This document shows positions 4,370-62,553 of a stretch of 64,000 bases of DNA, piece by piece. The stretch lies in the NCBI GenBank assembly GCA_010093815.1, contig ML996565.1. The stretch is one strand, 5' to 3'. The notes beneath the pieces were generated by a model, which saw nothing but the letters and a program-made list of their open reading frames with translations, searched no databases and was not told where the DNA came from. Within the stretch, counting starts at the first letter, position 1, and every line of letters begins with the position of its first letter. The translations under genes and the position numbers were made by a program. The stretch is from Pseudovirgaria hyperparasitica (taxonomy: Eukaryota).

Positions 4370-4410
4370 TTTTAATTCCTCTTTATATAGCACGACGGTA
4401 GTTTATAGAA

Positions 4411-15404: not shown

Positions 15405-16709
15405 CTACTCCTCTATCTTATTATTACTCTTAGAGCGTAGTAAATAAACTAACTAAGTAATAGAGCGACGGAGGTTAGAGATCTTATCCTCTAGAGTAAC
15501 CATACGCTTAGTTAGAGCCTAGTAAGACGACGACTAAGCGCTAGAGCGGAGCGACTAGATCTAAAGTTAGCTAACGCGGTCTAGAATAATCTAGAATAGA
15601 ATATATACCCTCTTATAAGGTAACTTAGAAGGAGAACTAGTAGATCTCTTATAAGATCTATTAGTAGCATAAGGCGGGCAGGAAGGAATAGTACGAATCT
15701 CTTCTATGGCCTTAGTAGCTAAAACCGACTCTCTAGAATAGGTAGCCTAAGCGCTAGGAATCTCGCGGCGACTAAAAATTATAAGCTAAGGTTAATAATA
15801 ATTAACGGTTTCTAAACTTATACTTTAATAACCTCTAGAAAAAGCTTATAGCGCTCTCTAAACTCCCTATATATAGAAGCTAGATAACCGCTAGAACCGC
15901 CGAGAGTCTCGCGGACGCGAAGATTATTATATATATCTTATATATAAATAGAAACCTAAAAACGTATTAGTATAGATAACTTTAGATTACCCTAGACTAA
16001 AATAGCCTAATAGACTTACCTAAAGATAAACTTTACTAAGAATAGTATAGCGGTAGTAGTAGGTAGGGAGCTTAAAGATTAGATATATAGGCCTATTACG
16101 GTTAGTAGAGTAGTAGCTAATACTAGAGTTAGAGCGGAAGAGATATTTAGAGCTAGTAGTATAAGCCTTAATATACTTAAAGTATATCGAACCGTAGTTC
16201 GCCGTTTTCCTATAGCGTAAACCGCGACTACGTTTAGTATCTTTAGCGATCTAGGCCTTATTATTACTAGGGCTAGGTTTAGAGCGAATATTAAGGTTCT
16301 AAAAGAACCTAGAGTAACTAAGTTAGTCTATATTAGACTAAAAAGAGGAACGGTATTTAGAGCGAGGCGGCGAAGGCGTAAACTCTTAATTATCGTCTAT
16401 GACGAGATCTTCTTTATCCTCTAAAGGAGGTAGAGTAGATAGACGGCACGAGTAGATGTAGATAGGCTTTATAGCTACCTCTTCTATAATACTAGTACTA
16501 GGATTACCTAGATTAGAGCGACTAGTGGCTACGTTAGTAGTAATAGTAGTAGTAGCCTTAGCTACCTTCTTCTCTAACTTAGAGCGCGCCTTTATACTAC
16601 TACGATAAGTGGATTTTTTAGCTAGTATAGCCGGGGTAGAGATAATCCCTTTAGAGCGAGTCTTATAAGAGGAGGAGGTAGGCTTAGGAATAGAACTAGT
16701 ATTAGATAT
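15405..16709 (-). pseudogene. Antisense, intron-containing accessory gene of Gypsy C with Zn-cluster-like Cys pattern
   Basis: Frame from ATA(ATG) at 16709 has only TAA/TAG stops. Intron 16019-15956 (GTAAGT...ACTAAT...TTTTAG) is phase 0 and keeps the frame. Tyr codons (RIPed Cys) form CxxC...C...CxxC-x6-C just before the intron. An upstream GCTAAC...TAG acceptor abuts the start. Confidence 0.7.
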
Positions 16710-17196
16710 CTATATATACACGTTAGCTAGAGATCTAAGAGTAGAATACTTATTTAGCCTTAAAGGCGATTAAAGAAGCTAAATTAGTAACCGTAATAAC
16801 GCGAATAGATTATATAGAACTAGCTCTAATAAAAATAGACTACTCTAGATCTAAACGGATCTAAACTAAAGGAGATAGTATACGAATTAACGACTTACCT
16901 TAAGAGTAAGGTAGATATACTAGAGAAGAAAATTTAGAATAAGAGAACTAAATATAAGCTTAGTTAATATAGCGGTCATATAACCCGCGGAGCTATCTCT
17001 AAGGTAGTAGCTATGAAGTAAGGGATGAGCGCGTATATAAATAAAAGTAAACTAGAGCTTAAGTTTACTATTATAAAGACTATTAATAACGTTATATAGA
17101 TTTAATTAGATGCGCGTATAAATATAACGCTTATAGAATTACGGATTTATATATAGCTAAGTACTTTAGGGCGAAGCATAAAAAGAAGAAGGATAT

Positions 17197-17436
17197 TATT
17201 AGGGCTAATACTAGGATGGACTTAACTAGACTACTATGGTCTAGTACGGTCCGTGATAGGTGGACCTAGGTTAAGCTAGCTAGAATAAGCGAGACTACTA
17301 TATAAGTAGGCCGTACACACTTAATTCCTACTCTTTAGAAATTAACCTCGTTAGGAGAGTAGACTACCCTTTTAAATATATTCCCGAATCCTCCTATAAC
17401 CTGTTAGACTACTATTCTATATCTATAATCCTTACA
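17197..17436 (+). repeat. 3' LTR, Gypsy C
   Basis: Direct repeat of 4130-4369, followed by TSD TATCT. Confidence 0.95.
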
Positions 17437-19262
17437 TATCTAAAGTTCTAACTTTATATCTATTAACTATAATAGTTTAGTTAACTTTACTAAGATTATA
17501 TAATAATCTATACTCCTTTATAAGAATTAATAAAATATAGTTATCTTCTATACTAGTATCTATAAGGGCCTATATAGTTTTATTACTATTTACTATAGGT
17601 AATAATACTTTTAGTAATATAAGGTCTTTACTTACTAGAAGGCGCTATAGCTTCTTCTAAGTATATATAATTTAGCTAAGAACGTGGTTAGGTCTTATAT
17701 ACTAGTCTATTCTTTTTTTAGATTCTTATAGTTAAGTAAAATATATTCTATTTCTCTATACTTATAGTAATAAAGTATACTATAATCCTACTATTTTATA
17801 ATAGATATTATATTTAAGTCTATATCTTATTCTTTTCTATATTAAGAAGTACCGCCTTAATTATTTTAGTATCCTCTTAGCGCGTTTCTACCCTAATTTA
17901 TACTCTTCTAGCGCTAATTATAGTAAGGTTACTCTTAATTAAATATATTTAATTAACCTTATTTCTAATCTATATAGAGTTTATCGGTTTTACCTAGAGA
18001 GCTATATTCCTTAAGAATATAGTAGTATTTATTAGCTTTCTCCTCTAATTTATATAGATAGTTAAAACTTAATAATACTATTTCTAGTCTTTTATAGATT
18101 AACGGAAGTAGTACTTCGCAAAACTAGAATATATAAATATTTTTCTATAGCATAGGGATATTATTCTATAGGTTTTAGAGATATTATAGTAGTTAAGTAG
18201 ATATCTAGTTTAGTCATTATACTACGCTTCTTAACTTAGATAGTACCTTTCTTTTACATTCTCTATCCATTCCAAGAGTATTTAGTATAAATATAGCTAA
18301 ATATTCCTAGGTTATCATAGATAGTAGCTATACTTCCTTCTATCTATTCTATTAATTATAGGATTATAAGTCTAGGTATTATTCTCTAAATAAAATATAT
18401 TATACTTTAGTAGAAAAGAGTAGAGGGTTATTAAGGAAGTACTTTTTATAGTCTCTCTTCTAGTCTTTCTACTTCTTTTAGTTCTTCTCTATAAATATAG
18501 TTAGATCTTTAGATTTAGATATATCTAGAAAAGAAGTAGAGTAAATTAGTAACGAAGTAGCTAGAAGTATAGTAGATTATTATAACTCTAATAGTAGGTA
18601 AACTAATTCCGCCTAAATTAGTATAGAAAGTTATCTATCTATTATTATTTAGCGTAGTTCTTTAAGAGACTTCTTAAGTTCTTATCTCTTTATAAGGAGT
18701 TTCACGCGTTCTATCTACTCTTTAAGAGTTTAAATCTCTTAGGCCTAATTCATAATATATTTCTAAATTTTAGTAATAGTTTATTATAATACCTTATATA
18801 GCTTCGCTATAACTCGTTATCCGGCTTTATATTATTAGAAGTTACTTAGTATATCTACTATTTCTTTATCTAAAAGCTCCGTAATTTAGTCTAATATCTC
18901 TACTTCTTAGTTAGAAATAGCTAGATTTAATACTAATTATAGAGGATCTCTATTATTTAATATAGTATTACTTATCTCTATAGTAGATTATATTAATCTT
19001 CTTAGTTCTAGTTAGACTATCTTAACTATAGTACTATATAGGGAGTAATTTAAATATAAGAATAGGGTTATTAGATAGTAGTATAGTTAGATAGAATAAT
19101 AGAGTATATTCTATTATAGAATAAATTACTACTAAACTCTTTTAATAGAAATCTAAGAGTATATATATAAAGAGACGCTAATCTATCTAGTATATAACTA
19201 TTTACTACTCTTCACGCTATCTTCTAACTATATTAGCTAAGGTATATACGGATCGGGTTATA
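17437..19262 (-). pseudogene. Gypsy B 5' part: protease, gag, and possible 5' LTR (~19112-19262)
   Basis: Minus strand GCC CTT ATA GAT ACT AGT (ALIDTG) ~17552-17569, and a RIPed CYKCGExGHIxxNC knuckle ~17727-17769. The LTR limits are a guess from TAT...ATA ends. Confidence 0.75.
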
Positions 19263-19429
19263 CCTAAGGCTAGGTCCTAATAGATATAGACTAGGGTAGT
19301 CTACGGCCGGTAGGCTGTAAGTAGCCTAGAAATTTAATCTACTTTCCTAGGGTATAAATACTCTTTAGTCTATCTAATCTACTAATTAATAGTTTACATT
19401 ATATATTAGTATATATACTACTTTATATA

Positions 19430-19837
19430 TCACTCTATATATTAACTCTATATTAACTCTCTATTAACCCTCTATTAACTCTCTATTAATTCTCTATTAA
19501 CTCTCTATTAAGTCTATATTAATTCTCTATTAACTCTATATTAATTCTATATTAACTCTCTATTAAGTCTATATTAATTCTCTATTAACTCTATATTAAT
19601 TCTTTATTAACTCTCTATTAAGACTATATTAATTCTCTATTAACTCTCTAATAAGTCTATATTAATTCTTTCTTAACTCTCTATTAAGACTATATTAATT
19701 CTCTATTAACTCTCTATTAACTCTCTATTAAGACTATATTAATTCTCTATTAACTCTCTATTAACTCTCTATTAAGACTATATTAATTCTCTATTAACTC
19801 TCTATAAACTCTATATTAATTCCCTATTAACTCTCTA
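19430..19837. repeat. 11-bp minisatellite (attaactctct variants, about 37 units)
   Basis: attaa recurs at 19441, 19452, 19463, 19474, 19485, 19496 and onward. Confidence 0.95.
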
Positions 19838-20063
19838 TACTAATTTAAAGATAGTATTATTTATTTTCTAATATTTTCTTCTATATTCTTTCTTACTTTC
19901 TACTCTATATATTATTCTATACTATCTTCTATCTACTTTATTATAGAGAATATATAAAGTCTATTTTAAGTTCTAAGAAGTAGATATCTATTATATATTA
20001 TTCTAATTAATAATAAAGTAAAAGAAAAGTATTAGAGTTAGAAGAATTATCTTTAGATAAGAA

Positions 20064-20155
20064 GCGGCCTTAGCGCCTTAGATAGGGCAGCCTTAGCGCC
20101 TTAGATAGAGTAGTCTTAGCGCCTTATATAGAGCGGCCTTAGTACCTTAGATAGA
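20064..20155. repeat. 23-bp tandem repeat, 4 copies (gcggccttagcgccttagatagr)
   Basis: Directly visible. Confidence 0.9.
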
Positions 20156-20186
20156 GAAGTTAGGCTAGAGACTTAATATAAAACTA

Positions 20187-20269
20187 CTAAATAGTTAAGA
20201 ATCGAACCCTTAACCTTTCTATTACTTTCTATTCCTATCTATACTATATACTACTATACTATCTATCTA
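20187..20269 (-). pseudogene. tRNA-like / Pol III promoter relic (A and B boxes)
   Basis: Minus strand has TAGTATAGTAGT (RIP of TGGTGTAGTGGT, 20261-20250) and GGTTCGATTC (20208-20199), about 41 nt apart. The cloverleaf is only partly recoverable. Confidence 0.4.
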
Positions 20270-22450
20270 AGTTCTAAAGAGTCTTACTTCTAGGGTTAAT
20301 AAACCCTTTCTACTTATACTTAAAACTCTACTCTTACCCTCTAATAGAGTACTATATACGCTAAAAAGTAGATAGAATTACTTACTATAAAGAGATCTAT
20401 AAGATAGTTAGCTTAGAATTCTTAATTAGGCTATAGGTAATTTATTATATTATAAAATATAGATTATTTATTATAGTTTAGACGTAGAGAGAGAGTAAGG
20501 TACTAAGGTATACTAGAAAATCCACGGCTAAGCCGTACGAATTTTTAACTCTTAAACCTACTACTAAATGTAATACTAGAGACTTATAAACTCTACTTAT
20601 CTATAATAATATAGCTATATATAGTAAAAAGTATATAGAATTACACAGCGGTTTATTCTCTATAGAATTATTAGTTAAATTTTTAATTAAGAGTATGGTT
20701 AATTTATTATATTATAAAAGGTAGTTTTCTAGTTATAGTTTTAGTAAGAGCGCTAGCAGGCACTAGATAAAATATTATATCTTTTTATAATTTCTTTGGA
20801 ATTTATATAGATTTATTATAATTTACTATAATTAATATAGCTTACTAATTTTTATAGTATATATAGCTAGTAATAATAATAATCTATAAGAATCTATATA
20901 AATTAGTAATAATTATAATATAGTTTTCTAAAGCCTTAATATTTAGAAGTAATTAGTATAGAAATAGATACCTTTAAATAATCTCTATCTTATATATATT
21001 ACTAATATATTAAAAGCTATTAATCTACTCTAACCTAGACTAGACTCTAATAATCTAGCTATATATTATTATAGTTATTACTTTCTATTATATACCGCTT
21101 ATAGTAGTACTAATTCTATAACTTATAGTATCTATATAACTAAAAAGTATTATTATTTATAGATATTTAAATAGGTTTAAAGAACTTTATATAGATTTAC
21201 TTATATTAGTATAGATTACTACTAGGCCTCTAGTAACCCCTACTAATAAGAAATATAGTATTACTAATTATAATATCTTAGAGAAGACTTTCTATAAGTT
21301 ATATATCTATAGTAAGAAGTATATCTAGAAGTATAATTCTAATATAATCTATAAAGATTTAGTAGAATCTACTATAGCTATTATTACTATAATTACTAGA
21401 TAATATTATTTTTCTTAAATTATTATAGATTCTTACTAATATATATTAATCTCTATAATAGTACTAAAATCTCTACTACTTTAGACTTCTTTCTATATAC
21501 TAATAATATTAAAATTCCTAGAAAAGATTCTAGTAAAAAAGCTAAGGTTCCTTTCTTATATATATCTAAGAGCTATAAATTTAGAGAAGATAGCTCTAAT
21601 CTAGAAATTTCTATACTAAAGATATATAGTTCTATACTAATTATTAAATCTTTTTACTAATTTATATAATTCTTAGTATATCTATACTAGTCTATCTCTC
21701 TCTATTCTAGTTTCTACTACTCTATAGATTTCTATAGAGAAGTTTATAGCTATAAGATATACTATATAGAGTTTATAGTATTAGAATAAAAGGCTAGAGA
21801 CCTATATTATAAAGCTCTATACTATACTAAATAAAAATTAGTAGAAGAAATTAAATATAATTATTATAATAATTAGTTCTTCTACTTCTACTCTAACTTA
21901 ATTAGTTTAGATCTATACTAATTAGTACTAATATATTTCTTTTATCTAGTATTTTTAGTTTTTAGTTTTAATTTTAAAGTAATCTTACTTCTTCTAGATA
22001 GATTAGTATAAGTTTATATAAATCTATATAGATCTCTATATTTTCTTCTAGTTTTCTTAATTTTATCTTTCTTTAATAATAACTTCTTTAATCTCTTTAG
22101 TAATCTATACTAATCTATACTAATTAGTACTAATTTTTAATATCTATTTCTCTTAGTAAATAATTTTTTTAAATCTCTTTTTTTAGTTAAATTCTTTAAA
22201 GTTCTAAGTTTAAACTCTCTAAGAAAGTTCTAAGTCTAAACTTTCTAAGGAAGTTCCTTAATTCCTTAGAATATTTTAAAGATCTATATTACTTTTACCT
22301 TCTTCCTTTTAGATAGCTATCCTTAGTACTAAACTATACTAAAAAACGTTAAATTACTATACTTTATTATAATTCTCTATAATTCTATAGCTTTCTTTAT
22401 TAATTATTACTTATATACTAATATTACTACTTTACTTATATTTATTATAG

Positions 22451-22600
22451 TGTTATAGCTATAGTAGTAGTATATACCATGTATAATTAATATAGGTAGT
22501 AGCGAACCGGTCGTTTATATAAATATAACTAACTAGATATATATATAGAAAATAGTATACTTTATAACTAATATAACTTAACTTATTAATAATCTTAATA
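22451..22600 (+). repeat. 5' LTR, Gypsy D (150 bp)
   Basis: Direct repeat of 31850-31997, differing in length by one TA unit. Confidence 0.93.
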
Positions 22601-25600
22601 AAGTAGTAGCTAAAAACTAGTATCTACTAGTTCGTATACTTCGAATACTAAGTCCTTTTTACTAGGCTATCTTAGTTAATATAGTAATAATAGAATAATT
22701 ACTAGTTTAAGTAACCTCCTTCTTACTATACTATCTATACTAACTACTTTATTATAGGCTAGTAAAACGTCCTTCTCCTAGTATATAGTATAAGTAGAAT
22801 AGACTCGTTATATTACTATAAACTTAACTCTCTAGAGCTCGAGAACGCTCTATTTACTAGTTATAAGACTATATATAGATCGAACTAGATATCTATAACT
22901 TTATTACTTCTATATTTTACTATTTAGCTTAAAAGTTTTCTATTATATACTAGATACTAGTAATTTTATATTTCCTATACTCTTACTAGCCGCTTATAAT
23001 AATAGCTTATATTACTACTAGAGGACTTAGTTCTCCTAGAGTATTAACTATTTAGTTATAGATAAGTTAATTAATAGATGTTTAGAAATCTACTACTACT
23101 TAAGATAGTACTTAATTATCTTATTACTAACTATCTATCGCCCTCTACTCTAGAATGTTTCTTATAAAATAGAAGGCTAGCTACTAAGCCTTTTCTACTA
23201 TAGTAGTTAATAAATCGCCTAGCGTTATAAGAGGCGTATAACTTATTTCTAAATAACCCGTTAATCTAAGCTTAGTACCCTTTAACTACTAGACTCTCTA
23301 GGGCTTTCTTAAGCTTATCGGACTCGGTTAATTATATAGTAAGCTCTAGTATAGACGCTACTATATCTAACTACCCTAAACGTACTAGTACTTTAGTAGA
23401 ATATACTATACTATATTAGATAGATATAGACGCCGGTAATAGTAGTACGCTAGCTAGGGCTCTAACGACTAATAATAGAGACTTTATAGTAAGATAGTAA
23501 GCTATAATTATAGCTATAATCTAGTAGACTCTTACTTAGCGGGCGGGTAGTTTATAGAATAATAACTAAAACCTAATAGATAGTAGTAAAAACCTACTAT
23601 TTAACGATAACGAAGACGGTTAAGAGTTTAGAATATAAGAAATTAGATTCTTCTAATCTAACTTAGATTATAGCTTTAGAGATAGAGATATTATTTTTAC
23701 TAGTTAGAATATATATATATATAGTATATATATTTTCCTTAACTAGATTAAAGACACTACTATAGCTAGAGGAACCGAAACTATTAAGTTAAAAATCTCT
23801 TAGTATCTATAAGAATATACCCTTAAGTAGTTTATATTAGAATTATTTAATCTTAAGAAGAAGGCGCTCCGTTACTTACCTAGTTTAGATACCTAGACTA
23901 TAGCCTTAATTAAGTAGTTTAAGTAGCTATTATCTAATACTCTATTATTCCTTATAATATAAAGATATACTCTCTAATAGACCCGCTCTTAAACCGACGT
24001 TACTTTATATATATATACTATAGCTCGCGACTATAGTACTATATAACTATTAGGCCCTTCTAGCTAAAACGCTTAGATGTTCGCATAGAATGGTATTAAT
24101 ATCCTCCTTTACTAGGGTCTACCTCTACTAATAGAATCTATATCTCTAGTCTAATTTATATAAACTCTATAGATAAAATATAAAGAATAGTACTAACTTA
24201 TCTACTATTACCTTAGTAGTATATAGCACGGTACTTTAAGTTAATTTACTTAATAAGGAAGAGAAGATAGTTAATATAATAGCTCTTATTACTATAACTT
24301 ACCTTAACTATTTAGTAACTCTTAAGACTAGGGCTAGTCTAATAGTTATTATCTTATAACCGATTAACCTAATTAACGCTATAACTTATACTAGCTCTAC
24401 CCTCTATAATAGTTCTAATAAGAAATTAGAAGATTTAGATAAAGATAGTTAAAAGACATTAGCTAATATATATTAGCTACTAGCTATAACTAGTACTTCT
24501 ATAGATTATTCTACCAGTTCTAGAATAACTAATAAGCTCTATACTAGCTAGTCTTAGTCTCTTAGTAATAATAGATAATTTACCTAACTACTACGACCGT
24601 TCTACTAGGCGTATAATATTTAGAAAGAATTATATAATCTAGATATTAAAGACGCTTACTATATAGAGGTTAAAGAAGCTTTCTTCTACCTTAGGCTAAC
24701 CGATATAGATACTATTAAACTAGTATAGTTTAGTAACGAAACCGGCCTTACTAGCCTTAATCTACCGCCTAGCGATATTAACAAGAGTCTACCTTTATAA
24801 TTTATAGTATGCTAAGTAACTAATATATATCTAGTATACTAGATCTAATATAACGTTTATAACGAGGTATTTCTATCGCGAAATAAGCTATTTAAGTACC
24901 TTAAGAATAGAAAGTACCTTAAGATAATAGTAAAGGCTAAGGTTCCCCTATATAATTATATAGTTCTAAGATTAGATATTATATATTATAATATCTAGGG
25001 TAATATAGTACTATTATTAGTTAGTAACCTACTAGATACTAGCTAAGTATATAAAGGATTATACTATATCTAAGTTAAGGTCTTACTTAGTCTTAACGGC
25101 TCTATTAAATATATCTATCTAGATATAGAAAGTATAGTAATACTAATTAACCGAGCTTTTCTTAAATAGTAGAACTCTAATATCTAAATACTTATCTAAC
25201 TAGCTATTTCTATTTAAGAAGTAGAGGGAGTTAAGCCTATAAAGTCGACTAAGTTTATAGTTATTATACTATTTCTCCTAGGCTAAACGTCTAATAGTTT
25301 AACTACTATAATTATAAAAGTAATATATAAAGTATATATTCTTAACTATTTATAGATAGATCTTCTTCTTAGAACTAACGTTATAGTATCTTAGAAGATA
25401 GATATCTATATAAGTATATATATAATAACTATTAGTATATATAGCGGGATTACTATACTAACCTTTACTACTACTATTCGACTAGTAGTACGCTAGAGAG
25501 TAACCGTTTTATAGTATACTATCCTCTAGCTACGAATACTTATACTAGTCCTAATTATAATCTATTACTAGCACGAGTTAGCCGTAGAAGATTATATATT

Positions 25601-28600
25601 TACCCTAATATATATAAGTATAAGGCTTGGTTAGGGTAGAGACGTCTATATATATCTTACTAACTAAAATATAGTATATATATTTATTATAAACTATAGA
25701 TTTAGGTTAGTATATATAAATAAAAATATAAGACTTAGTATATTAATAGACGAAATAGATACCCTCTATATATTTTAGACTAAAGTAGTCCCTTTAGACG
25801 GTATAGAGGGATTATCTATAAAGCTTACTTAGCTTAATAAAGTTAAATAGATAGGCGTGTTTAGTATAAAAATTTACGCTAAAGATAAAGTAACTACCTA
25901 GATATTTAATAAGATTATCTAAAGTTATACTATCTTATTTTATAATACTAGACTTATAAATATTCTAGAGAAAGACTAGATATATATCCCCCTAGTAAGT
26001 AACTAGAAAATAGCTAGTATAAAGCTAAGCTACTATATCTACCTATTAGGGGCAAGTAGTAAGACTATTATTAATAAGATATATACTAAGCTTTATATAT
26101 AAGGTCGCATAGAATACCCGATATAGTTAATACCATTTAGTTTCCTAATATTTATTATATACTCTATAGTAAAGTTACTTACCTAGATATCGTATAAGAA
26201 CGCCGGTCGGGTAGTTAGAGATATAAGAGGCCTAAATAAAATTAGTATTAAGAACTTCTATCTATTACTACTCTAGGGTAATATTATCTAATATATAGCT
26301 AGAAAAAAGTTTATATCTATTATTAATATAGCTAGCTTCTTCTACTAGTAGCCGGTCGCTAAGGAAGACCGTTATAAACTAATATTTATATTATACTAGG
26401 GCTAGGAGTAGTTAAACGTTATTCTAATAGGTTTCGATAACTCTCTACTATACGTATAGAGATAGATTAATAAGATCTTATACGACGCTAGATACGAGGC
26501 GTTTACTATAGCGTATATTAATAATATTTCTATATTTAGTAAGGAACTTAACGAGTATCTTAACTACCTTTAGTAGGTATTTACTATACTATAAGTAAGA
26601 AACCTAACGCTTAAAGGTAAAAAGTATTACTTAGAATATCTATCTATTACTCTACTTAGTTAGAAGGTTAATACTTATAGACTCTCTACTATAGCTAAGA
26701 AATTAGTAGCTATATATAATCTCTAGTATCCCGAAACGCTTAATAAGCTTAAATACTACCTTAGACTAACTAGATAGTTATAGTAATACATGCTATATTA
26801 TACTTAACTTACCTAGAATCTATAGGCTAAGAAAACGCGTCTTCTTAAAGAAGTACCTTTAGCGGGATATATATATATAGTATACTATAAATGAATAAAG
26901 ATTACTTAAATAGACTAGCTATTAGTATTATAGAAGGGTATTTAGACCGCCTTCGCGGATAAGACTAAGCTTATCTACTATAATCTAAAATAATAGCTCT
27001 ACGTAGATATTAATATATTAAAGTATAGCTTTAGAGTCTTTACTTACTATATTAAAGGGGAAGTAGACGATATTATAAAGATTAGATAATTAGATATTAA
27101 GTCTATTCTATACCTTAGTAAAGAACTCTCTATAGCCGAGTCGTGGTACTAGCTAATAGAGCTAGAAGTAGTAGCGGTTATATAGACTATACGCTAAATA
27201 TACTATATAGTTAATAGTTTAGACTAACTAATAATTATTATTACTAACTATATAGCTATACTAAGTATCGTTTAATAGATAGCGCTTATAAGCTTATTAG
27301 TTAATAAGCTAAATCTCTAACTAGTATAGATCTTATAGTATCTATTATAGTTTAATCTAGAGCTTAAATATAGACTAGATAAAGAGCACGTAGTATCTAA
27401 TACTCTTTCTTAGCTCCGTTAGATCTATAATAGAGCCTAGCTAAGAGACTTAGATATCCTTAAGAAGCTCTTAATATTTAATATTATAATAGTTAAGATT
27501 AATCTAAAATTCATAAGGTAACTAGCTAACGTATACGATAATAATAAGTACTAGATAAGTATAAAAGCTATAGTACTAGACTAGAATAATAATCTTACCT
27601 AACTAATTCCTTTCTAATTTACTAATAGTATAATTTATTATATTAATTAGCTCGATGGATGATATTAGATATACGTACTAAAATTACTTAATAGAGATAT
27701 TTTTACTTAATTCCATAATAAGAGCGCTTATATAGGATTTTTCTAAGTATATAATTAGATTCGCGTAGACTACTTTATTTATTAACTTATAAAGCGTCTA
27801 AAGTACTATATTTAGTACTATCCTATATATAAAACTTACTAGATATAAAGATATATACCGTATAGTAAGTTAAAGCTAGTCTAGTTACTACTAATACTAT
27901 TTTATATAGTTATAATAGACTTTATTATTAGTCTACTAATATAGAATAGATTTAATACGCTACTTACTATAATAGATAAGTTTACTAAGCGAATCTACCT
28001 CGTTCTAGGCCGGAATAACTAGACTACTATATAATAGATAACTATATTTAGGAGGAGTATACTACTAGAATAGAGAGTTCTAGCTATAATTATTTATAAT
28101 AGGGACCGAAAATTCCTATTATTATTTTAGAAAGGAATTTTCGAGGGAATTAGTACTAAAATCCTAGTATTAACTACTTATTATAAATAGAGTAATAGTT
28201 AAAGCGAGCGCACAAACTAAACGGTTAAGATTACCCTATATTTTCTTATTTTAATATTACTAACTATAGGCTAGATAACCTATATTCTATTAGTCTAGTA
28301 GCTTATAAATAATTTAACGAATACCTCGATCTAAAAATCTCTAAATAAGATAGTATATAGCTTCTAACTATCTAAAGGCACCCTATTTAAGGAAACTAGT
28401 TTAATAGAAGTAAATGATTACGCCTAAAAGTATAATATAAACTAGAAGAAGGCGTTAGACGTGCTAGTATTTACCTAGACGCGTATAAAGGAGTGTTTCA
28501 ATAGATACTATACGTCTCTACTAGATCTCGCTCCTAGTAACTAGGTCTATATTTAACTATATAAAGGGTATAAGATTCTAGGTACTTATTATAAGCTTAG

Positions 28601-29100
28601 CTAATAGTAAGTCGAACTAGTATTAATTAAACGTATAGTAGACCGTTAGATATATAAACTAGAGCTACTAGAGACGTAGAAAATATACCTAGTAATATCT
28701 ATTAAGTAGTTAGAACTATTCCTAAAGGAACTCGACCGCTTTAACTATAGAGAAGATATATACCTACTTACTATTATAAATAAGTAGATAGCGATAGCTA
28801 TCTATAATCGGCGCTATATTTAAATTAGGTGTAATCGTAAACTAACTATTAAATACTAGGTAATGGTATATAGTAATAGTCTAGAATTCGGTTAATAGAT
28901 ATAGCGAAGTATACTTCTATTAGACTTAGTTAAAGAATATAACCTTAGATAAGCTTACTAGAATAGTCTACTAGGAGTCTAGCTAGATTAATAACTACTT
29001 AAAGTTATAATATCTATCCGCCCCTACCCATCGTAGATAGAGAGCTATTAATATCTATTATAATAAGCGGCGTTATAATATATATATTTACTAAAGTATT

Positions 29101-31749: not shown

Positions 31750-31849
31750 CCGTACCGTGGTATCTATAAAGATATAAACCCGTGTCTAGCTAAGTATCGC
31801 GTATAAAGCTACTAAGGGTAATAGTAGGTTTTCTTAAATTCGGGCACCT

Positions 31850-31997
31850 TATTATAGCTATAGTAGTAGTATATACTATATATAATTAATATAGGTAGTA
31901 GTAAACCGGTCGTTTATATAAATATAACCGACCGGATATATATAGAAAATAGTATACTTTATAACTAATATAACTTAACTTATTAATAATCTTAATA
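31850..31997 (+). repeat. 3' LTR, Gypsy D
   Basis: Direct repeat of 22451-22600. Confidence 0.93.
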
Positions 31998-48500: not shown

Positions 48501-50817
48501 TATCTATACACGGTAGATATCCCCAAAGAAGTTACGGAGGAGAATATACTTAATATTATTAAGATACTCCTAAATGATAAAGCACCCGGACTAGATGGAA
48601 TTCTAAATCGATGCCTAAAAAGTACTATAAAAGCGACCCTACCGCTTATTACTTATATATTCTAAGCATGCGTCACGTAGGGGTACCACCCCTAGAGCTT
48701 CCGAGTTATCTATACTATTATACTCCCGAAACTAGGAAAGAGCCCTAACTCCCTAAAGGGATAGAGACTAATCACCCTTCTCTCCTACCTAGGTAAGATA
48801 CTAGAGGCTATAGTAGCGAAGAAGATGAGTACCGCGGTATAGGAATATAATCTCCTCCCTCCGAACCAGAAGGCAAAGGTAGATAGCTCCCTAATAATAG
48901 CTATCTAATATATTATCGAAGTCGTCTAGGCCGTATAGAAACAGGGACGGGTAGTATCGCTCCTCTCCCTCGATATGGCCGGAGCGTTTAATAAGGTAAA
49001 CTATATAAGACTTATTTATAACCTCTAGATAAGACGAATACTAGAATGGATTACACGCTTTATATAGTTATTCCTTATAGGAAGAATAACTTAGATATAT
49101 ATCCCTAGGTACTAGAGCGAATATAAAGAGACGGTATACGGCATCCTATAAGGGAGCACCATCTCTCCGATTCTATTCCTCTTCTTTACGGTAGACCTTC
49201 TTTAAGGAATAAAGTATATAGAGATAGTCGGATACGCCGATAATATATACCTCCTAGCCATTAATAATAATACTAACCGAACGTGTAGACGACTAGAATA
49301 GGACTACGAGAGGTGCCTCTAGTAGGTAAAACGCTATAGAGTAAAGTTCGCCCCGGAGAAATACTAGCTTATGCACTTTATTAACCGTTAAGGGAAATAG
49401 GTAACTAGGGAAGGCGAATAACGCCCCCGAATCGACGCATTTAACGAACTACTAGTATAAAGCATGCGCGCGCTCGGAGTTATACTAGATAGTAAGCTTA
49501 AATAGGGACCATAAGTAGTATACACCGTCTCTAGGGCCCTCTAGATAGAAGCTACTATATAATGGATTATAGCCTCCACGTAGGGAACCGCCTAGGATAA
49601 GGCACGCTAGCTATATATATCTATAGCACGACCCGCCTTTACGTATAGACACGAGTGCTAGTACACGGCCCTTATATAGACTAGGCGAATAAAGCTCGAA
49701 TCTATATAGAACCGTATACTCCGTCTTATATTAGGCGTATATAAAGCTACTAATACGGTACTACTACGACGCGAGATAGACGTTATAAGTATATATAACT
49801 TCTACTAGATATAGAGAGTGGTATACTTTACTAAATAATAAGTATAGGAACGTATAGGAAACGTAGAATATACTTTCGCCGCGCTACGTATACGAATTAG
49901 CATATATTACCGCGCACTCCTATATATAGGCCGGAATTAAATACGGTATAGATGCTTAATAGAAGCCGACTCTAGCTAAGTAGTATAAGAAGTCCGAGAT
50001 AACCTAGACGCTCTTCTAGACTAGTAGAGCCTTTAAGAACTTATAAAAAATATACGGTCGTAGACTTAAGATAAGTAGAAAGAGGTACTCCGTGCCTACT
50101 AGACCTCCTAATAGAATAGATACCTAGAGTAGATTTGAGGGCCATGGAAGGAACTAAGTAAATGGATGTATAAAGGGCTAACGAAAGTCTAAGCATCTAT
50201 ACTTATCTAAGCCCGAACGGGCGCTATAGAACTCCTATACTATATCTATAAGAGAGGCGTTCCCGATACCTCCCTATGGTATAAGGCGTGTGGCCGGAGA
50301 GGTATAATACGCTACTATCTAGCTATATACCCTAACCTCTATATATAATAGTAATAGCTTATCTATATTACGAAGACTTTAGATATCGTACGATAGCTTA
50401 ATAAGTACCCTAAGGATGTCTCCTAATAGATACTTATATATCTACTACTCCTCTAGTACTAGTGGACCCGGAAATATATACCGGAAGAGACCCGGTATAC
50501 GCCGGTAGTAACCCGATATATACCGGAAGAACCCTAGGAGAACCCCGATTATTAGTTAAGGGTAGCCCTTAACTAATAACCTCCGCATCTATACGTGCTG
50601 CCTAAGGGCGAAATAATAGTAATATAGGCTATAGGCTAATAGGCGTACCCTATGGCTATATACTTAAGACGAAATAGAGGTTTAATGAGATGTAGTTATA
50701 GACATAAGGAAGTTTTTCTCTATGGGGTTTCTTCTTATATAGTGGCTTAGACTAGAGAAGGCATTGGCCTATAGAGTACTACTCTACCTAGTTATATAAT
50801 ATTATTATTATTATTAT
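45509..50817 (+). mobile_element. Full-length LINE copy 2
   Basis: 15-bp TSD tatactataaagaat at 45494-45508 and 50818-50832, (TAT)n tail, TAATG ORF1/ORF2 junction at 47251, GYADD ~49230. Confidence 0.95.
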
Positions 50818-52329
50818 TATACTATAAAGAATCTAAAAATAGAAGAGCTAACGCTCTTAGCTAATAAGTAGAATATAAATAAAAAGAACCTACTATAGAA
50901 TAGACTATATTAGAGATTACTAAAGATAGAAACCTTAGACTAATATAATATATTATAGTAATATAAAAAGAATTTATACTTAAGAACCCTAAGAGAAGAA
51001 GTATAATCCCTAGAGATAAGGCCTACTATTTTATTAAAGAATTCTATAAAGATCTAATATATAGATATTAAAGAGAAATAAAAACTTATAAAAGATTTAA
51101 GAGATACTATATAACTTATAAGGAAAGATAAGTTATTAAGGAAGTTATATAGAACTACGTTCTATATAATAAAAGCTAATCTAATAGATATAAACTATAT
51201 AGAGAACTCTAACTAATTCCTCTACTATTATATACTTAGGAAATAATCTCTATAGATTTTATAATAGACCTACTACTCTTAAGAGAACTAGTCTTATAAG
51301 TATAGTATAATACTATACTAGTAGTAGTTAATAAACTTATAAAGTATATCTACTTTATACTCTATTAAAAGAATATAGATATAAAAGAAATAGTCTATAT
51401 ATTTCTATAAGTAGTTATAGTAAACTATAGTTTATCTAATAGTATTATATCTAATAGAGATAAGCTCTTTATATTAAATTTTTAGAAAAGCCTAGTATAA
51501 TAGCTTAGAATAAACTACTAACTATTAATAGTCTATTATCTATAGACGGATAGATAAATAGAGATTCTAAATAGAACACTAGAACAATATCTATAATACT
51601 ATATTAATAAATAGTAAGATAATTAGATAGAACTACTACTACTAGCTTAATTCATCTATAATAGCGCGATAACCTTAATAACTAAAACCTTACTATTCTA
51701 TATAAACTATAGATTTAACTCTATAGCTAGCTATAATTATAAACTAGAATAATCTATACCGAAAGTAAAGATTAAGGTAGAATAACTATATAAACTATAT
51801 ATAGAGCTATAAACTAAACTTTCCTTTATAAATAAAAGAATAGTAAAATATATAAACTAAAAGAGAATAAAGGGACTAACTCTAAGGGGGGAAGACCTAG
51901 TATTCCTTATATAAAAAAATATTAAGATATAATAACTAAATAGTAAACTAGACTTTAAGAAGATTAGACCTTTCTAAATAAAATAAAAAATTTTAGAAGT
52001 TAATTATAAACTATCTTTACCTTAGAATATAAGAATATACCTAGTATTTTATATCTTATTACTAGAACTAGTACTATATAATATAAAAGTCGAAACTAAT
52101 ATTAAAGCTATAGATAAAGAATTTAAAGTTAAAAAGATTCTAGAATCTAGAATTAGTAATAAAATATTAGAGTATCTAATTAAGTAGAAGGGCTATAGAC
52201 ACGAATTAAATACTTAGGAACCTAGAGAATATTTAATAAACTACTAGTAACTATTACGGAAGTTCTATTAAATAAACCTAGATTTACCTAGTTCTCTATA
52301 CTAAGCTAAGAATTATTAAAACCTAAGGG

Positions 52330-52864
52330 AGGATTTAGAACCTCCTTAATAGTAACTCTCTATTATTATTTAAGTTACTTCTCCTTCTCCTTAAGATCTA
52401 TTACTAATAGATTCTAATAAAGTATATTATTTTAATAACGCTCTAATAGCTTCTACTATTTCTCTAGATACTCTAGACGCGTAAAGGCGGTCTAAGTATT
52501 CTACTAAGCTTTTCGCTAAGTAGCGGCTATATATTCTTTCTCTAGCTTAAGATAAGTCTTTTTAGAATAAATCTTCTTATCTAGAAATATTACTTACTAG
52601 CTCTAATAAAAAGAAAGAGAACTTATAAGATAACTTACTTAAAGCCTTAATTCTATACTTACTTACTAAACGACTCTAATAAATATACTCTAAATACTTA
52701 TCGGACTTTATAAATACTACCCTATAGATTAAGCTATATTTCTTATAAAATAAGTAAGGAAAAGGTATTTCATCCCCTTTATAATTAATTAAAATAGATA
52801 GAGTAACTCTCTATTTTACTAGATTAGATTTAGAAGACTTAACTAATTTTATAACTCTAGATAT
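52330..52864 (-). pseudogene. Antisense accessory ORF of Gypsy A, Zn(II)2Cys6-like
   Basis: The minus frame reads G D E M P F P C S F C K K H G L I C x9 C S E C x9 C after restoring TAT/TAC to Cys, i.e. C-x2-C-x6-C-x9-C-x2-C-x9-C (~52756-52655). A charged helical segment follows. The 3' end is uncertain. Confidence 0.7.
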
Positions 52865-52973
52865 AACGGAAGAAAAGGAAGAAGGGCTCCTTACCAAAGG
52901 AAGTTAGAATAACTCTCTACTTATAAGTAGCTATAGAAGTACTTTAGGACGAAGTACCTTAGAAGGGGTATTA

Positions 52974-53502
52974 TATAATAAATTACTAGCTAGGACTATA
53001 GGGGGATATATAGACTCTAGCACGAGTAGTATAAGAGATAGTATAATATATAGAAGAGGCGTCTATAATATAATAGATAGCTTTAGATAATAATCTAAGG
53101 CTAAGATAGATATCTATAGAGAGAGCTAATTATAGGTACTTAGAATAGGTATTCTAAGTAGTCTACTAGGTAATTAGAAATAGAATATTAGTATTCTAAG
53201 TAACATACTAAATACTTAGAATAAGTATTCTAATTAGAGAACCTTAGTAGAACTATATAGACCCTTTAGACCCGATCTCTAGAGATAGTTCTATAGTAAT
53301 TAATTTAAACTTATACTAATATAATTACTACTTTACTCGCCGACTAGCTAGTTACTATTTATACTCTATTAATACTTATTATAAACCTACTTATACTCTT
53401 CTAAGCTTTCTAAGTATCTTTATCTTTAGAAAAGCTAGAACACTCTATATAACGGACTACTTTATAGATAAGCCGCATCCTTATTAGAGAAGGTTTATTA
53501 TA
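52974..53502 (+). repeat. 3' LTR, Gypsy A
   Basis: Direct repeat of 35857-36385. Confidence 0.95.
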
Positions 53503-53954
53503 TAATAATACTAGTTTAATATATAAATACCTTAAATAAGACTATAAGAGATATATCTAGTAGATAAAGTACCATAGAGTAAAGTTCGCCTCTAAGAAAT
53601 ACTAACTTATATACTTTATTAACTACTATAGAAGATAGACTACTAAGGAAGAAGAGCGACGTTCTAGGATAGATACTTTTACTAAACTACTAATATAGAG
53701 TATATATATACTTAGTATTATAATTAATAATAAACTTAAATAGAGTCTATAGATTATATATATAGTATCTAGGGCTATTAAGATAGAAGCTACTATACGC
53801 CGGATTATAGTCTCTATATAGAGAACTACCTAGAATAAGGCGCGCTAGTTATATATCTCTATAGCACGACCCGCCTTTATATATAGATATAAGTACTAGT
53901 ATATAGCCCTTATATAGACTAGGTAAATAAAGCTTAAGTCTATATAGAACTATA
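53503..53954 (+). mobile_element. LINE copy 4, part 2
   Basis: Resumes exactly where part 1 stopped. Confidence 0.9.
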
Positions 53955-58472: not shown

Positions 58473-59121
58473 TAAATTTTTTTTATTATACTAAGCTATA
58501 GCTTTACTATACTAAGCTATAATAAGAGAATAGAGTAGAGTATAAAAGATATAGAAATAAAGTTATAATAGAAGAAGTAACTTACTTTATTATTTTAATA
58601 ATAAGGGCCTTTTTAGTATAAAGTAGTAATAGTAGTAACTAAAGATAAGGTTATAGAGAGATACCTTTATACTATATAATATAAGCTCTAGATTAATACT
58701 AGTACTACCTTTAGTTATAGTAAATAGAATATATTTCTATTATTACTCTATTATTCTACTAATAATAATATTATATAGTATTCTATCTATAGTAGAGAAT
58801 TTTCTTATTAGCTACTATTCCCTCTCTATAATAGATAAAGACTATCTATTAGCTATCTACTTATATATAAGAAATAAGATTTTAGATATATTACTAAGAA
58901 CTTATAATACTCTAGTTTAGTTATAGTCTAAGGCCGTATATATATTACGTAATATAGTCTCTTTCTAAGACTCTACTCTATAATACTATACTCTAAAAGA
59001 CTTTACTCTATAATACTATACTCTATAAGACTCTACTCTATAATATTAATACCTTTAGAATTCTAGAAAAGTAGCCTTAAATTTAAGGCTACTTATAGTC
59101 TACCGGCCGTAGGCTACCCTA
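58473..59121 (-). repeat. TIR-element end with subterminal 30-bp repeats (left arm of inverted duplication)
   Basis: 58628-59121 is the reverse complement of 59622-60115. Confidence 0.9.
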
Positions 59122-59621
59122 GTTAGAGATATAAATATACTAGATAGAGATACTCTTAGAAAGCTATTTATAGATAGTATTAATAGAACTACTATATCTA
59201 GAAATACCTATATAAAACCTAGAGGGATTATATATATAATAAAGATACTACTAAGTACTCTAACTATAATAGAAACTATCTATTATAGTTAGTAATATAT
59301 ATAAAATATAGATAAGTTACTAAGTATATTAATACTATAAAGGTAAGAGAGATAAGATAGATATACTAGACTATAAGGCCTCTACTATCTACTCTAATCT
59401 TATCTATAACTATACTAACTAATCTATACGGGGGCGGGACTAATATATAATAGTATACTATATAAAGAAAGGTAGGGCGACCCTAAGATATTCTTAAGGT
59501 AGCTACTATATAAAGGTAGTTATACCTTAATACTACTAGTATATAGACTTAAGTATTCCCTAGTACCTAATAAGGAGCTAAGATATACTTATTATTATAT
59601 AGATAAATATATAATATAAAC
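59122..59621 (+). mobile_element. 500-bp internal LINE fragment (ORF1 knuckles to ORF2 start)
   Basis: Matches 33392-33891 of copy 4. Confidence 0.9.
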
Positions 59622-60115
59622 TAGGGTAGCCTACGGCTAGTGGACTATAAGTAGCCTTGAATTTAAGGCTACTTTCCTAGAGTTCTAAAGGTATTAGTAT
59701 TATAGAGTAGAGTCTTATAGAGTATAGTATTATAGAGTAGAGTCTTTTAGAGTATAGTATTATAGAGTAGAGTCTTAGAAAAAGACTATATTATATAATA
59801 TATATATAGCCTTAGACTATAACTAAACTAGAGTATTATAAGTTCTTAGTAATATATCTAAAACCTTATCTCTTATATATAAGTAGATAGCTAATAGATA
59901 GTCTTTATCTATTATAGAGAGGGAATAGTAGCTAATAAGAAAATTCTCTACTATAGATAGAATACTATATAATATTATTATTAGTAGAATAATAGAGTAA
60001 TAATAGAAATATATTCTATTTACTATAACTAAAGGTAGTACTAGTATTAATCTAGAGCTTATATTATATAGTATAAAGGTATCTCTCTATAACCTTATCT
60101 TTAGTTACTACTATT
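59622..60115 (+). repeat. Second copy of the same TIR-element end (right arm), cut by Gypsy E
   Basis: Starts tagggtagcctacggc. Homology to the left arm stops at TGTAATG (60116). Confidence 0.9.
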
Positions 60116-60317
60116 TGTAATGAATGTAACTAAGGTATTACTACAATAGCAATTAGAATATATTATAATTCAACTTAGAGAGAGTAGGGGTGGCTCGTAT
60201 GGGTTATAGCTTAAGTATAGTCTTAAGCGAGGTCACGTGATACCCCTATACTAGTCTCTATCCGTCCCGGCTCCGTTATGTAATACTAGAGATAAGGTAA
60301 AGCCGAAGTCCATAATA
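60116..60317 (-). repeat. Probable 3' LTR of Gypsy E
   Basis: TGT at 60116 and ...CATAATA at 60317 next to the PPT-like tract. The partner LTR is outside the window. Confidence 0.65.
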
Positions 60318-60409
60318 TACCCTTATTCTCTAGGGTTATCTTAGGGACCGGCTTAGTATTTCATGTAATAATAACCGGCTCGGTTGGGTCTTAGGTTTAC
60401 GGTCTTTAT

Positions 60410-60860
60410 ATCGTACTATATAATAGTAGTAGAGCTATATATTACGTCTAGTAAGGTGGCCGTATCTCGTGGTCGTGTCTCGGTCGCGTAATAGAGGAGG
60501 GTTCCTCTATAACGGCGTCGTTAGTTATATAATCGTATGGTAGTAGTACCTCGTGGTTACGTTCTAGCGGTCACGTGGTAGAGGAAGGTTCCTTATATTA
60601 CTACGTCGTTAGTCATATAATCGCATGGTAGTAGTATCTCGTGGTTACGTCCTAGCGGTCACGTGGTAGAGGAGGGTTCCTCACCTCATAGCGTCGTTAG
60701 TTTTATAATCGCACTATAGTAGTATCTTATAGTCGTGTCCTAGCGGTCACGTGGCGGAGGTGGGTTCCTTATACCACGGCGTTATTAGTCATGTGGTCGC
60801 ACGGCGGTAGTATCTTATAGTCGCGTTCTAGCGGTCACGTGGCGGAGGTAGGGTATCCTA
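60410..60860. repeat. 88-bp tandem repeat, about 5 copies, most with CGGTCACGTG
   Basis: cggtc recurs at 60481, 60568, 60656, 60744 and 60832. Confidence 0.92.
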
Positions 60861-61048
60861 CGCACGAACCGCGCGTCTTGTTTATTATTATTGTTGTCCA
60901 TTTTGGGACCGGCTCCACCCCGGCCCACACGATTTTCCCTAACGCGAGTATATGGGTCCCACGTCTAGCGACTTTCTTCTTCTTTAACTACTATCACGCC
61001 TACTATCTTAATACCGCGTAGTAGCTACCACGATATTAGTAAACTCGC

Positions 61049-62553
61049 ATGCTACCTCGTAGCTTCTATACTATTATTATAAGCGCGCTAGGCCTAAATA
61101 GGCCTATTATAGAAGCCGGCGCCGTCTTAGCGGTGGCTATAGGTGCTAGGGGTTAAGACTCTAACGATTGACGCGCGCCTAGGCGCTAGGAACCGCCTAA
61201 CCGCACCGTGAGTGGGTCCTATCCCTATACCGTTCCTCATGCTAACTAGATAGATTATTCCTCCTACCGCCTCCCGATAGGCTAAGCCTATTTACTATAT
61301 AGGGCTATATATTATAGAGGGTGACTCGTTAGAAGACGAGTATACTAAGTCCGTGTACTTCGTATATTATATATATATAAAGGCCCTAGAGAAGACTAGG
61401 GTGCTTAAGTACGTGCCGTCTCTACGCTATAGTAGCGCCTACTAATCTAGAGCGTAGCTATAAGCCTAGCCGCGGCACTAACTATATAAAGTGCCATACG
61501 TTAAAAGGGATCTACTTATAGAATACTAAGGAGCTCGCTACGTACCTAGCCCTACGTAAGGCGTAGAGCCGCCTTAAGAAGTTTATGCACGAGTCGGTTA
61601 ATAATAACTTTAGTTATATAATAGACCGTGGTAGTCGCGGCCTAGACCCGACTAAGCCTTCGTCCGGTAAGTAGCCACGTATAAACTCTAAGTTCTACCG
61701 CCTATATAAGGACTATAAGTCTAACTTAGAGATTATATATATCGCCCGCCGTAACGCTAGCATTATTAGTTAGGTCCCTATAACGCCTAATCATAGTGCC
61801 ATTACGGTAATTAAGATGCTATATCGTGGTAGTAGTAACCGTAGACAGCTTAGTAGTGTGATTCACTAGATAAATTAGTATATATTATATAACAAGGCCT
61901 AAATGGGCGAGTTACGCACTAATATCGGCGCCCTATAGGTATATACTTAGTTAGCCTAATTACTACTATCTTAACACGTGACGTAGGGTTTAATATAGTA
62001 GGTCGCTTCCGGCCTAGTACGCCTAGCCGAGCCGCCGCCTCGCCGACTCCTTATCTAGGCGGTTATAGAGGAGGAGGAGCCTCGTTTAAGTAGTAGTCGC
62101 CTACGCCGCCCTCGGCTAAGCGGCCCTAAGGAGTCGCCTACCTATAGCCCGCGCCATTACTATACTACCCCCTACTAGCTCCCTATTACTCCCCCCCCGT
62201 AGGAGGCCTCGCTATCACCACGCTATCCCTATACCCCGCCCCGCCACCGTAACCCGTCCTAGCGCCGCTCTCGCTCGCCGGAGCGCTATAGCCGGTCCCC
62301 CGACCGCCGCGACCGGTCCCCTTACTACCGTGACTAGTCCCCCCGCCGCCGTGACCGTTTCTATAAGCGTTACCGCCGATCCCGTGACCGCTAGCGTCGT
62401 ACCATTAAGGGTCGTCGCTTATCGCGTCGTTACTAGTCGCCGTCTCGTAGCCGCTATAGCCGCCCCGATGAGGTATATAACTCCCCCTTACCGCTAAGCT
62501 AGATTAATAATTACCCCTACCGCTAGGAGCCGGCCTAGGGGAGGACTAGGTAA
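61049..62553 (+). pseudogene. Antisense, two-intron accessory gene of Gypsy E: Zn-cluster-like domain plus Arg/Ser/Pro-rich tail
   Basis: ATG at 61049. Intron 61208-61253 (GTGAGT..GCTAAC..TAG, phase 0) and intron 61409-61457 (GTACGT..TACTAAT..TAG). The spliced frame gives C-x2-C-x11-C-x7-C-x2-C-x6-C, including an unmutated TGC at 61492. RSPERxSRSPDRRDRSP repeats at 62270-62460. The true stop is uncertain. Confidence 0.72.

Follow-up and report, generated by a model that had tools for sequence, protein, structure and literature searches.

The stretch of DNA considered here, 64,000 nucleotides of contig ML996565.1 of Pseudovirgaria hyperparasitica (assembly GCA_010093815.1), hereafter the window, is a nest of long interspersed nuclear elements (LINEs) and of four relics of chromodomain-bearing Ty3/Gypsy retrotransposons, heavily altered by repeat-induced point mutation (RIP). 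The signature of RIP extends over its whole length: all 32 of the 2-kb bins show it, with TA/AT ratios of 1.53-2.37 and (CA+TG)/(AC+GT) ratios of 0.02-0.33. The GC content of the window is 0.21-0.50, and only two stop-free frames of at least 120 codons are left. A sequence-only reading of this DNA had claimed that three of the Gypsy relics, here called families C, A and E, possess dissimilar long terminal repeats (LTRs) and yet each carry, between pol and the 3' LTR, the relic of an open reading frame (ORF) antisense to gag-pol and coding for a Zn(II)2Cys6-like protein. The structural part of this claim is confirmed by the LTR pairs, the polypurine tracts (PPTs) and the ends of pol: the LTRs of the three families are dissimilar, and the region at issue lies between pol and the PPT or 3' LTR in C, A and E, where antisense additional ORFs are placed in other elements.

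Family C is delimited on the + strand by a 5' LTR at 4126-4388 and a 3' LTR at 17193-17459, direct repeats that are 90.6% identical over 267 columns, and a purine run at 17180-17192 (+) abuts the 3' LTR as its PPT. The pol relic (reverse transcriptase, RNase H, integrase and chromodomain) occupies 10951-14850 on the + strand, the end being approximate. In the X-masked frame, Pfam recognizes RVT_1 (8.4e-19), RT_RNaseH_2 (2.6e-13), SH3_Tf2-1 (4.2e-10) and Integrase_H2C2 (0.0023). The chromodomain was read by eye at about 14626-14730, and P0001, a protein in which PF00385 is present, aligns to 95% of the segment that runs from the integrase to the end. Family C has the domain order of chromoviruses, in which reverse transcriptase, RNase H and integrase are followed by a C-terminal chromodomain. 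The extra-ORF relic delineated by periodicity spans 15393-16757 and comprises about 455 codons in one frame of the - strand, in the antisense reading.

Family A, also on the + strand, sits inserted in a LINE and itself contains two LINEs. Its 5' LTR (35852-36385) and 3' LTR (52969-53502) are 94.4% identical, with a PPT at 52961-52968 (+) abutting the latter. The integrase and chromodomain relic at 50823-52350 (+) was recognized by translation, with the chromodomain read by eye and a triple stop taken as the end of pol; in tblastn searches its frame matches 70 of the 80 metagenome loci described below (best 1e-36). The claimed ORF relic of this family, 178 codons on the - strand at 52330-52864, fills the interval between pol and PPT. 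Family E runs on the - strand and off the edge of the window. An integrase and chromodomain relic was read by eye at 62830-63998 (-), for which Pfam returned nothing at E<=0.01. The PPT at 60972-60985 (-) abuts a 3' LTR starting at about 60971 (-), and this LTR holds 88-bp tandem repeats (60481-60859, -; 4.3 copies, each with a CACGTG core). Other genomic copies skip 63-103 bases at 60481-60859, which indicates that the number of 88-bp repeats varies among copies. The extra-ORF relic of family E, at 61237-62520 on the + strand and thus antisense to pol, comprises about 428 codons in one frame and was delineated by its periodicity (chi2 12-41). Among the three families, the interval between pol and PPT is longest in C, at about 2.3 kb, against about 1.8 kb in E and 0.62 kb in A; in the fourth relic, family D, the interval between pol and LTR measures 2.9 kb.

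Since RIP causes transitions only and leaves the succession of purines and pyrimidines untouched, the three-base periodicity of purines and pyrimidines, expressed as chi2, can be used as a RIP-proof measure of coding. Known ORFs of the window reach chi2 values of 12-24 (LINE ORF1 15-24, and parts of Gypsy pol), and 6% of 424 scored segments exceed 13.8. In the C relic, purines make up 0.58-0.76 of the bases at one codon phase, which remains constant over 15301-16650, with chi2 up to 20.9. In the E relic, chi2 is 12 at 61501-61950 and 41.2 at 62101-62550. The periodicity of C and E is therefore as strong as that of the real ORFs nearby, and tandem repeats do not explain it: none that could account for the signal was found in C, and the weak 21-bp repeat, the only one within the E relic, is not sufficient. 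Families C and E very probably carried an extra ORF after pol. Stop density was also considered as a coding test and rejected, as true pol frames are as stop-laden as other frames; true pol and LINE frames contain 7.2-9.3 stops per 100 codons versus 5.1-7.4 in the claimed frames.

For family E, other copies from the same genome extend the argument beyond the window. Matching contigs from sequencing run X1 number 1181 (302, 291, 369 and 219 by identity class, the last 219 being less than 90% identical), a figure that counts contigs and not element copies. Together they cover 30 of the 30 bins of 60300-64000, and 454 of the 475 changed places are transitions. As the interval is common to many diverged contigs, it belongs to the family and is not a one-off insertion. 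Two runs that bear the same species label and come from another sample (X3 and X4) contain 0 contigs matching the E stretch.

A periodicity of the purine-any base-pyrimidine (RNY) type is identical in a frame and in its mirror, and so does not settle the strand of the C and E ORFs. They might instead be sense ORFs, each following pol as the third ORF of its element and comparable to the env-like ORFs of other Gypsy elements. Indeed, the mirror frames are nearly as open (in C, 25 stops on either strand, those of the antisense frame all TAA or TAG), and the + strand of the C interval stays purine-rich, as do pol and other known ORFs. The interval of family D also reads best in sense. This fourth chromodomain Gypsy relic, absent from the sequence-only reading, has its frame on the + strand and LTRs at 22453-22613 and 31852-32010 that are 90% identical; its pol-to-LTR interval (28960-31851), the longest of all, contains a strongly periodic, protein-like sense frame at about 29900-31400 (chi2 15-16.6, the maximum at 30301-31050), with purines at 0.65-0.67 in codon position 1 and G at 0.08 in position 2. 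Pfam recognized 0 families in this frame, and likewise 0 in a six-frame search of 17461-32160, despite a Gypsy pol discernible there by eye. Codon composition, however, speaks against a sense reading of the C and E relics. The second codon position of C has a protein-like G frequency of 0.17 when read on the - strand and one of 0.27 on the + strand, where Arg, Leu and Ser amount to 39% of residues, as is typical of wrong-strand readings. In E, the antisense frame over 60990-62830 has 45 stops and 0 TGA, whereas its mirror has 60 stops, 3 of them TGA; in C and A, TGA codons are too scarce to be of use. Moreover, in the intact relative L001 (see below) the antisense strand is clearly coding. The sense reading is distinctly unlikely, and the antisense reading of the C and E ORFs is favoured over the mirror sense frame as the likelier of the two.

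We therefore read the relics as lineage-specific additional ORFs, killed by RIP, between pol and PPT of several chromodomain Ty3/Gypsy families, and give this reading a probability of about one half. It is favoured by the position of the relics, the RIP-invariant periodicity, the strand bias in C and E and the family-wide presence of the E interval. Further support comes from the periodic interval of D, from an antisense gene with a predicted intron in the same place in L001, and from the precedents of brtn and of plant elements. The earlier claim of ORF relics antisense to gag-pol thus gains coding periodicity in C and E, with the strand favoured only, and lacks it in A.

A number of observations weigh against the reading as additional ORFs, beginning with the RNY symmetry, which leaves a mirror sense frame possible in both C and E, and the pol-like purine richness of the C + strand. 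Frames no less open than the claimed ones are found in 20-30% of segments of equal length. E includes a low-complexity stretch, namely a tail rich in Arg, Ser, Pro and Asp at 62101-62520 (+), in which all six frames are nearly open. Family A shows no three-base periodicity (chi2 0.3-3 over 52201-52651; purines 0.56/0.52/0.54 by codon position), where a gene like that of L001 and of the length of A would yield an estimated chi2 of about 11. When the RIPed pol and LINE frames of the window are used to train a codon model, each of the three C antisense frames receives a negative score; the model recovers held-out LINE frames and is confounded by the A-rich sense strand, and is counted here only as evidence against. 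Homology searches of the relics were also negative. Word-index searches with the C and E relics gave nothing at E<=1, a phmmer search of 1.84 billion representatives with the C relic had 0 matches at E<=0.001, and Pfam, including Zn_clus (PF00172), gave 0 families at E<=10 for nine long antisense frames and four short in-frame pieces. The Pfam result is a weak test for relics, given that Pfam also missed the E integrase, and homology tests in general are weak for a cluster of 35 residues stripped of its Cys. A control segment of C pol (13396-14760), equal to the C relic in length and in RIP load, retrieved 12 Gypsy polyproteins, the best at 3.3e-47.

These negative results may also be understood if the intervals are not element genes at all and correspond to long untranslated tails, captured host sequences or old nested fragments, their ORF-like look arising from composition and RIP. 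Such a view would fit the lack of a homologue in any library, the frequency of low-stop frames in the window, the absence of periodicity in A and the rampant nesting, with LINEs inside both C and A. It would also fit the short intervals of most intact relatives: an LTR pair was identified in 14 of the 27 metagenome loci with enough sequence after pol, and in 11 of these 14 the pol-LTR interval is 36-600 bp long. On the other hand, the periodicity of C and E matches that of real ORFs and is not due to repeats, the E interval is present in many diverged copies, and a captured fragment would itself still be coding sequence. Furthermore, none of the intervals of C, A, E and D matches the rest of the window in blastn. 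We judge this explanation unlikely, though it deserves to be taken seriously. In tblastx comparisons between the four intervals, nothing was found below E 0.004, and the relics are mutually unlike. In the database searches described above, the relics have no conserved relatives on record, a picture typical of lineage-specific extra ORFs. Within this set A is a weak candidate: its antisense frame has 9 stops versus 16-27 in the other five frames, and it may have been a small extra ORF whose layout and partial spacing recall L001.

The proposed nature of the encoded proteins fared less well than their position. Zn(II)2Cys6 domains, which bind zinc and, as dimers, CGG-type DNA sites, have the spacing C-x2-C-x6-C-x5-12-C-x2-C-x6-8-C, and the sequence-only reading had recognized a six-cysteine pattern in each relic once RIP was reversed, that is, with Tyr codons read as former Cys codons. 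In the six-frame codons of the window Tyr reaches 10.0% and Cys 0.35%. When either residue is accepted at each position, the strict spacing is matched 15 times in six frames of the window and 0 times in the C, A and E regions; four of the 15 matches correspond to the zinc knuckle of LINE ORF1. If a last loop of 9 is allowed, the motif of A joins and the matches in the window rise to 16, compared with 4.4 +/- 2.2 per 64 kb in simulated third-order Markov sequence. A pattern relaxed enough to fit both A and E occurs at 62 loci in the window, a density at which the three regions should contain 1.62 matches; they contain 2, which is the level of chance. Since RIP makes no insertions or deletions, a true relic should keep the fixed spacing of the domain, which is broken in A (last loop of 9) and E (first loop of 11) and has no match in C. 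The A motif consists of six Tyr codons at 52655-52756 (-), starting at 52754, 52745, 52724, 52694, 52685 and 52655, with spacing x2, x6, x9, x2, x9 and one stop inside, a near-match to Zn2Cys6. The Cys/Tyr cluster of E, at 61399-61515 (+), retains TGC codons at 61402, 61414 and 61492 besides Tyr codons starting at 61423, 61459, 61483 and 61513; with Tyr read as Cys its spacing is x2, x11, x7, x2, x6, the first loop having 11 residues and not 6.

The ancestry of individual codons could be followed in the other copies of family E, in which 40 of 499 variant sites, none of them on a motif Tyr, were inspected. Other copies have Tyr where the window retains Cys at 61492, and TGG in place of the TAG at 62392-62394. 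The two Tyr codons that could be resolved derive from other residues than Cys: TAC at 62173-62175 is CAC (His) elsewhere, and TAT at 62143-62145 appears as CGT (Arg), as judged from two changes in the same five contigs. At the latter site T>C and A>G occur together in the five contigs, which indicates that transitions hit CpG as well as CpA in family E. In Pseudovirgaria hyperparasitica, then, a Tyr codon of RIPed DNA may also go back to Arg. The zinc knuckle of LINE ORF1 has Tyr codons at the Cys spacing in 4 of 4 copies (6190-6276, 33391-33477, 42139-42225 and 46816-46902). These knuckles illustrate the appearance of a Cys motif after RIP; they also make plain that a pattern of this kind can turn up several times merely because the element carrying it is repeated. 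The cysteine argument thus fails against the Tyr-rich background that RIP creates, and caution is warranted for any motif read from RIPed DNA. A Zn2Cys6 identity of the relics is unproven and unsupported by the window, with matches at chance level.

The canonical introns ascribed to the C and E ORFs were likewise not confirmed. In C a single loose match was found (16019-15956, 64 nt) versus 0.48 expected, and its removal would shift the frame, though the periodic phase is equal on both sides. In E an intron-like motif, GTGAGT...CTAAC...TAG, of 42 or 46 nt, lies at 61208-61253 (+) upstream of the Cys cluster; the two strands of the window together contain six strict matches, of which this is one. 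For the C-terminus of the C relic, with a basic stretch followed by L-x6-L-x6-L-x6-L, a bZIP reading was also considered and rejected: Pfam gave nothing, and four heptad Leu are not rare by chance.

A gene of the kind imagined in the sequence-only reading nevertheless exists, judging by its sequence, in an intact relative. A search of metagenome contigs with the best database match to pol yielded 80 loci totalling 469 kb, 27 of which have enough sequence after pol. The best of the 80 for C pol (414 bits, the next seven scoring 376-395) is L001, a circularly permuted chromovirus unit of 6.9 kb from a public metagenome, with a GC content of 0.57. The ends of its contig of 7010 bases overlap by 127 identical bases within gag, which crosses the join, and its pol is intact (1307 residues). 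The interval between pol and LTR in L001 is about 1.9 kb; seemingly longer ones occur in L003 and L056, neither of them clean, and the seemingly long intervals of L003 and L005 were rejected because they proved to be the gag of the next element. In L001 an extra gene lies tail to tail with pol on the - strand at 5042-5884 (ATG at 5884, stop at 5044-5042), with a predicted intron of 57 nt (5663-5607, GTAAGT...CTGAC...TAG) that holds the sole in-frame stop. The antisense strand is clearly coding (G1 0.49, A3 0.08, GC3 0.73). The predicted product has 261 residues and comprises a charged helical N-terminus, a Cys cluster, a helical stretch, a part rich in Ser, Pro and Arg, and an acidic tail. It contains exactly six Cys, at positions 77, 80, 87, 99, 102 and 109, in the spacing C-x2-C-x6-C-x11-C-x2-C-x6-C, which is that of the strict Zn2Cys6 pattern. 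With Cys only, this pattern is found at two places when the 80 loci (469 kb) are translated in six frames, and the one outside L001 is riddled with stops.

The L001 product has no match to Pfam Zn_clus at E<=1 and none among PDB sequences. A single-sequence model of the cluster was too poor for comparison (pLDDT 60); it found 0 matches in PDB by Foldseek and 0 at Z>=2 by VIA-align wide. The nearest Atlas cluster has 59 members, from basidiomycetes where known (score 0.89, 182 of 256 features shared), and is automatically named Zn(2)-C6 fungal-type domain-containing protein; as it is possibly the cluster of L001 itself, it serves as a lead only, and on this lead the host of L001 is probably a basidiomycete. 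When residues 1-60 were compared with named Atlas clusters only, the score was 0.77, below use. By tblastn the gene is absent from the other 79 loci and from the window, and viral contigs contain no relative of either the gene or the pol of L001.

In view of L001, it may be asked again whether all three relics are antisense genes of the Zn(II)2Cys6 type and form a recurrent accessory module of chromoviruses. L001, the best of the 80 loci for C pol, belongs to the same broad clade, its antisense gene combines a canonical intron with the strict six-Cys spacing, that spacing is rare in Cys-only form in the 80 loci, and the Atlas cluster name points, as a lead, in the same direction. The layout of A resembles that of L001, tail to tail with pol and with the cluster near the N-terminus, and five of its six Cys/Tyr positions are canonically spaced, while E retains three Cys codons within 31 residues and an intron-like motif upstream. 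Against this stand the lack of any strict match (0) within the C, A and E regions when Tyr is accepted in place of Cys, though RIP makes no indels, the chance-level number of relaxed matches, and the origin of Tyr codons from His and Arg as well (CAC at 62173, CGT at 62143-44 in other copies). In addition, the relics are alike neither among themselves nor to the L001 gene: in RIP-aware alignment to the latter the highest z value was 0.62 (E), with 0.15 in C and 0.05 in A, versus 24.8 for the pol control, so that a single recurrent homologous module is not shown. Even intact, the L001 product leaves Zn_clus and PDB unmatched, and among the 27 loci whose sequence extends far enough past pol, a single one has a zinc-cluster gene of this kind. 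A zinc-cluster nature of all three relics is consequently improbable. The idea of a recurrent accessory module finds a gene of the proposed kind in L001, but not the likeness of the relics to it or to each other. The Zn2Cys6 reading of the relics is a minority reading, kept alive because L001 shows that the class is real. In its bolder form, antisense genes that are small, contain an intron and encode DNA-binding proteins of the Zn2Cys6 type, as in L001, would be a recurrent feature of fungal chromoviruses, with A, E and perhaps C as members of the class killed by RIP, and the product would be a transcription factor acting on its own LTR or on host silencing; we hold this to be quite unlikely.

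The reading that we favour, of lineage-specific additional ORFs, can be put in the form of a tentative model. Families C and E would each have carried an ORF of about 430-455 codons, most likely antisense to gag-pol, and A maybe a small one of about 180 codons; the three ORFs would not be detectably related to one another. By analogy with L001, brtn and the plant antisense ORFs, each gene could be transcribed from a promoter of its own beside or in the 3' LTR. Lying antisense to the genomic RNA, an intron could persist through retrotransposition. The product might be a small nuclear nucleic-acid-binding protein that regulates the element, and in L001 would combine the six-Cys cluster with an acidic tail and, between the two, a helical stretch, probably a coiled coil.

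The remainder of the window is largely made up of LINEs. The multi-copy 5.3-kb repeat, in which Pfam identifies Exo_endo_phos_2 (2e-05) and RVT_1 (2.9e-12), is a LINE and not a Gypsy element. Copies lie at 4901-10179 (nested in family C), at 45540-50820, at 43451-38198 (reversed), at 32154-35856, resuming at 53502-53950 after the interruption by family A, and at 56176-53961 (reversed). A 497-bp inverted duplication (58628-59124 and 59619-60115, 97% identical) flanks a LINE fragment at 59123-59620 and is far less diverged than any other repeat pair of the window. Between families C and D, an array of an 11-bp unit in at least 37 copies occupies 19347-20000 in otherwise unannotated AT-rich DNA.

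Extra genes of LTR retrotransposons are known, almost all of them without a function. If it is true that some fungal chromoviruses encode a zinc-cluster DNA-binding protein of their own, this would be a concrete and testable case of a retrotransposon-borne transcription factor, with an intron retained because the gene lies antisense. The intact L001 gene makes the zinc-cluster idea testable. The window alone provides a more modest result, as its relics are dead and mutually unrelated.

Antisense extra genes in fungal chromoviruses are already known, as exemplified by brtn of Boty (Zhao et al. 2011, Virology 417:248; as reported in passages of PMC7264820 and PMC8365987). According to passages of PMC7264820, PMC8365987, PMC4227169 and PMC5987419, the Boty-like chromoviruses of Botrytis and Sclerotinia and several plant elements have an antisense gene between pol and the 3' LTR. 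In a survey of fungal LTR elements (PMC3248453), the word 'antisense' has 0 occurrences. An antisense extra gene as such had thus been described before, whereas our literature searches found no report linking an extra ORF of an LTR retrotransposon with a zinc cluster, and none of a gene like that of L001. As far as these passages describe it (PMC7264820, PMC8365987), Boty resembles the relics in several respects: it is a Gypsy element of fungi, has a chromodomain, and carries after pol and ahead of the 3' LTR an additional gene that runs opposite to gag-pol. The relics differ in being RIP-dead and in belonging to other families, and are likened to brtn by its description and not by its sequence. 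The antisense ORFs of Grande, RIRE2, Retand and PvRetro13 are, in the account given in part of PMC7264820, family-specific, without known function and present in most copies of a family; they share place and orientation with the relics, but belong to plant lineages that are mostly not chromoviruses, and presence in many copies is seen here for E. With Gal4-type Zn(II)2Cys6 proteins (PF00172), L001 has in common the six-Cys spacing followed by a helical stretch and an acidic tail, and A and E a partial spacing of Cys or Tyr. Neither L001 nor the relics has a profile match, L001 has no PDB match, and these small proteins are without the usual middle homology region. L001 itself, although intact, of GC content 0.57 and with a gene of no detectable similarity to the three relics, shares with the families of the window the pol clade and an extra gene in the same interval, tail to tail with pol.

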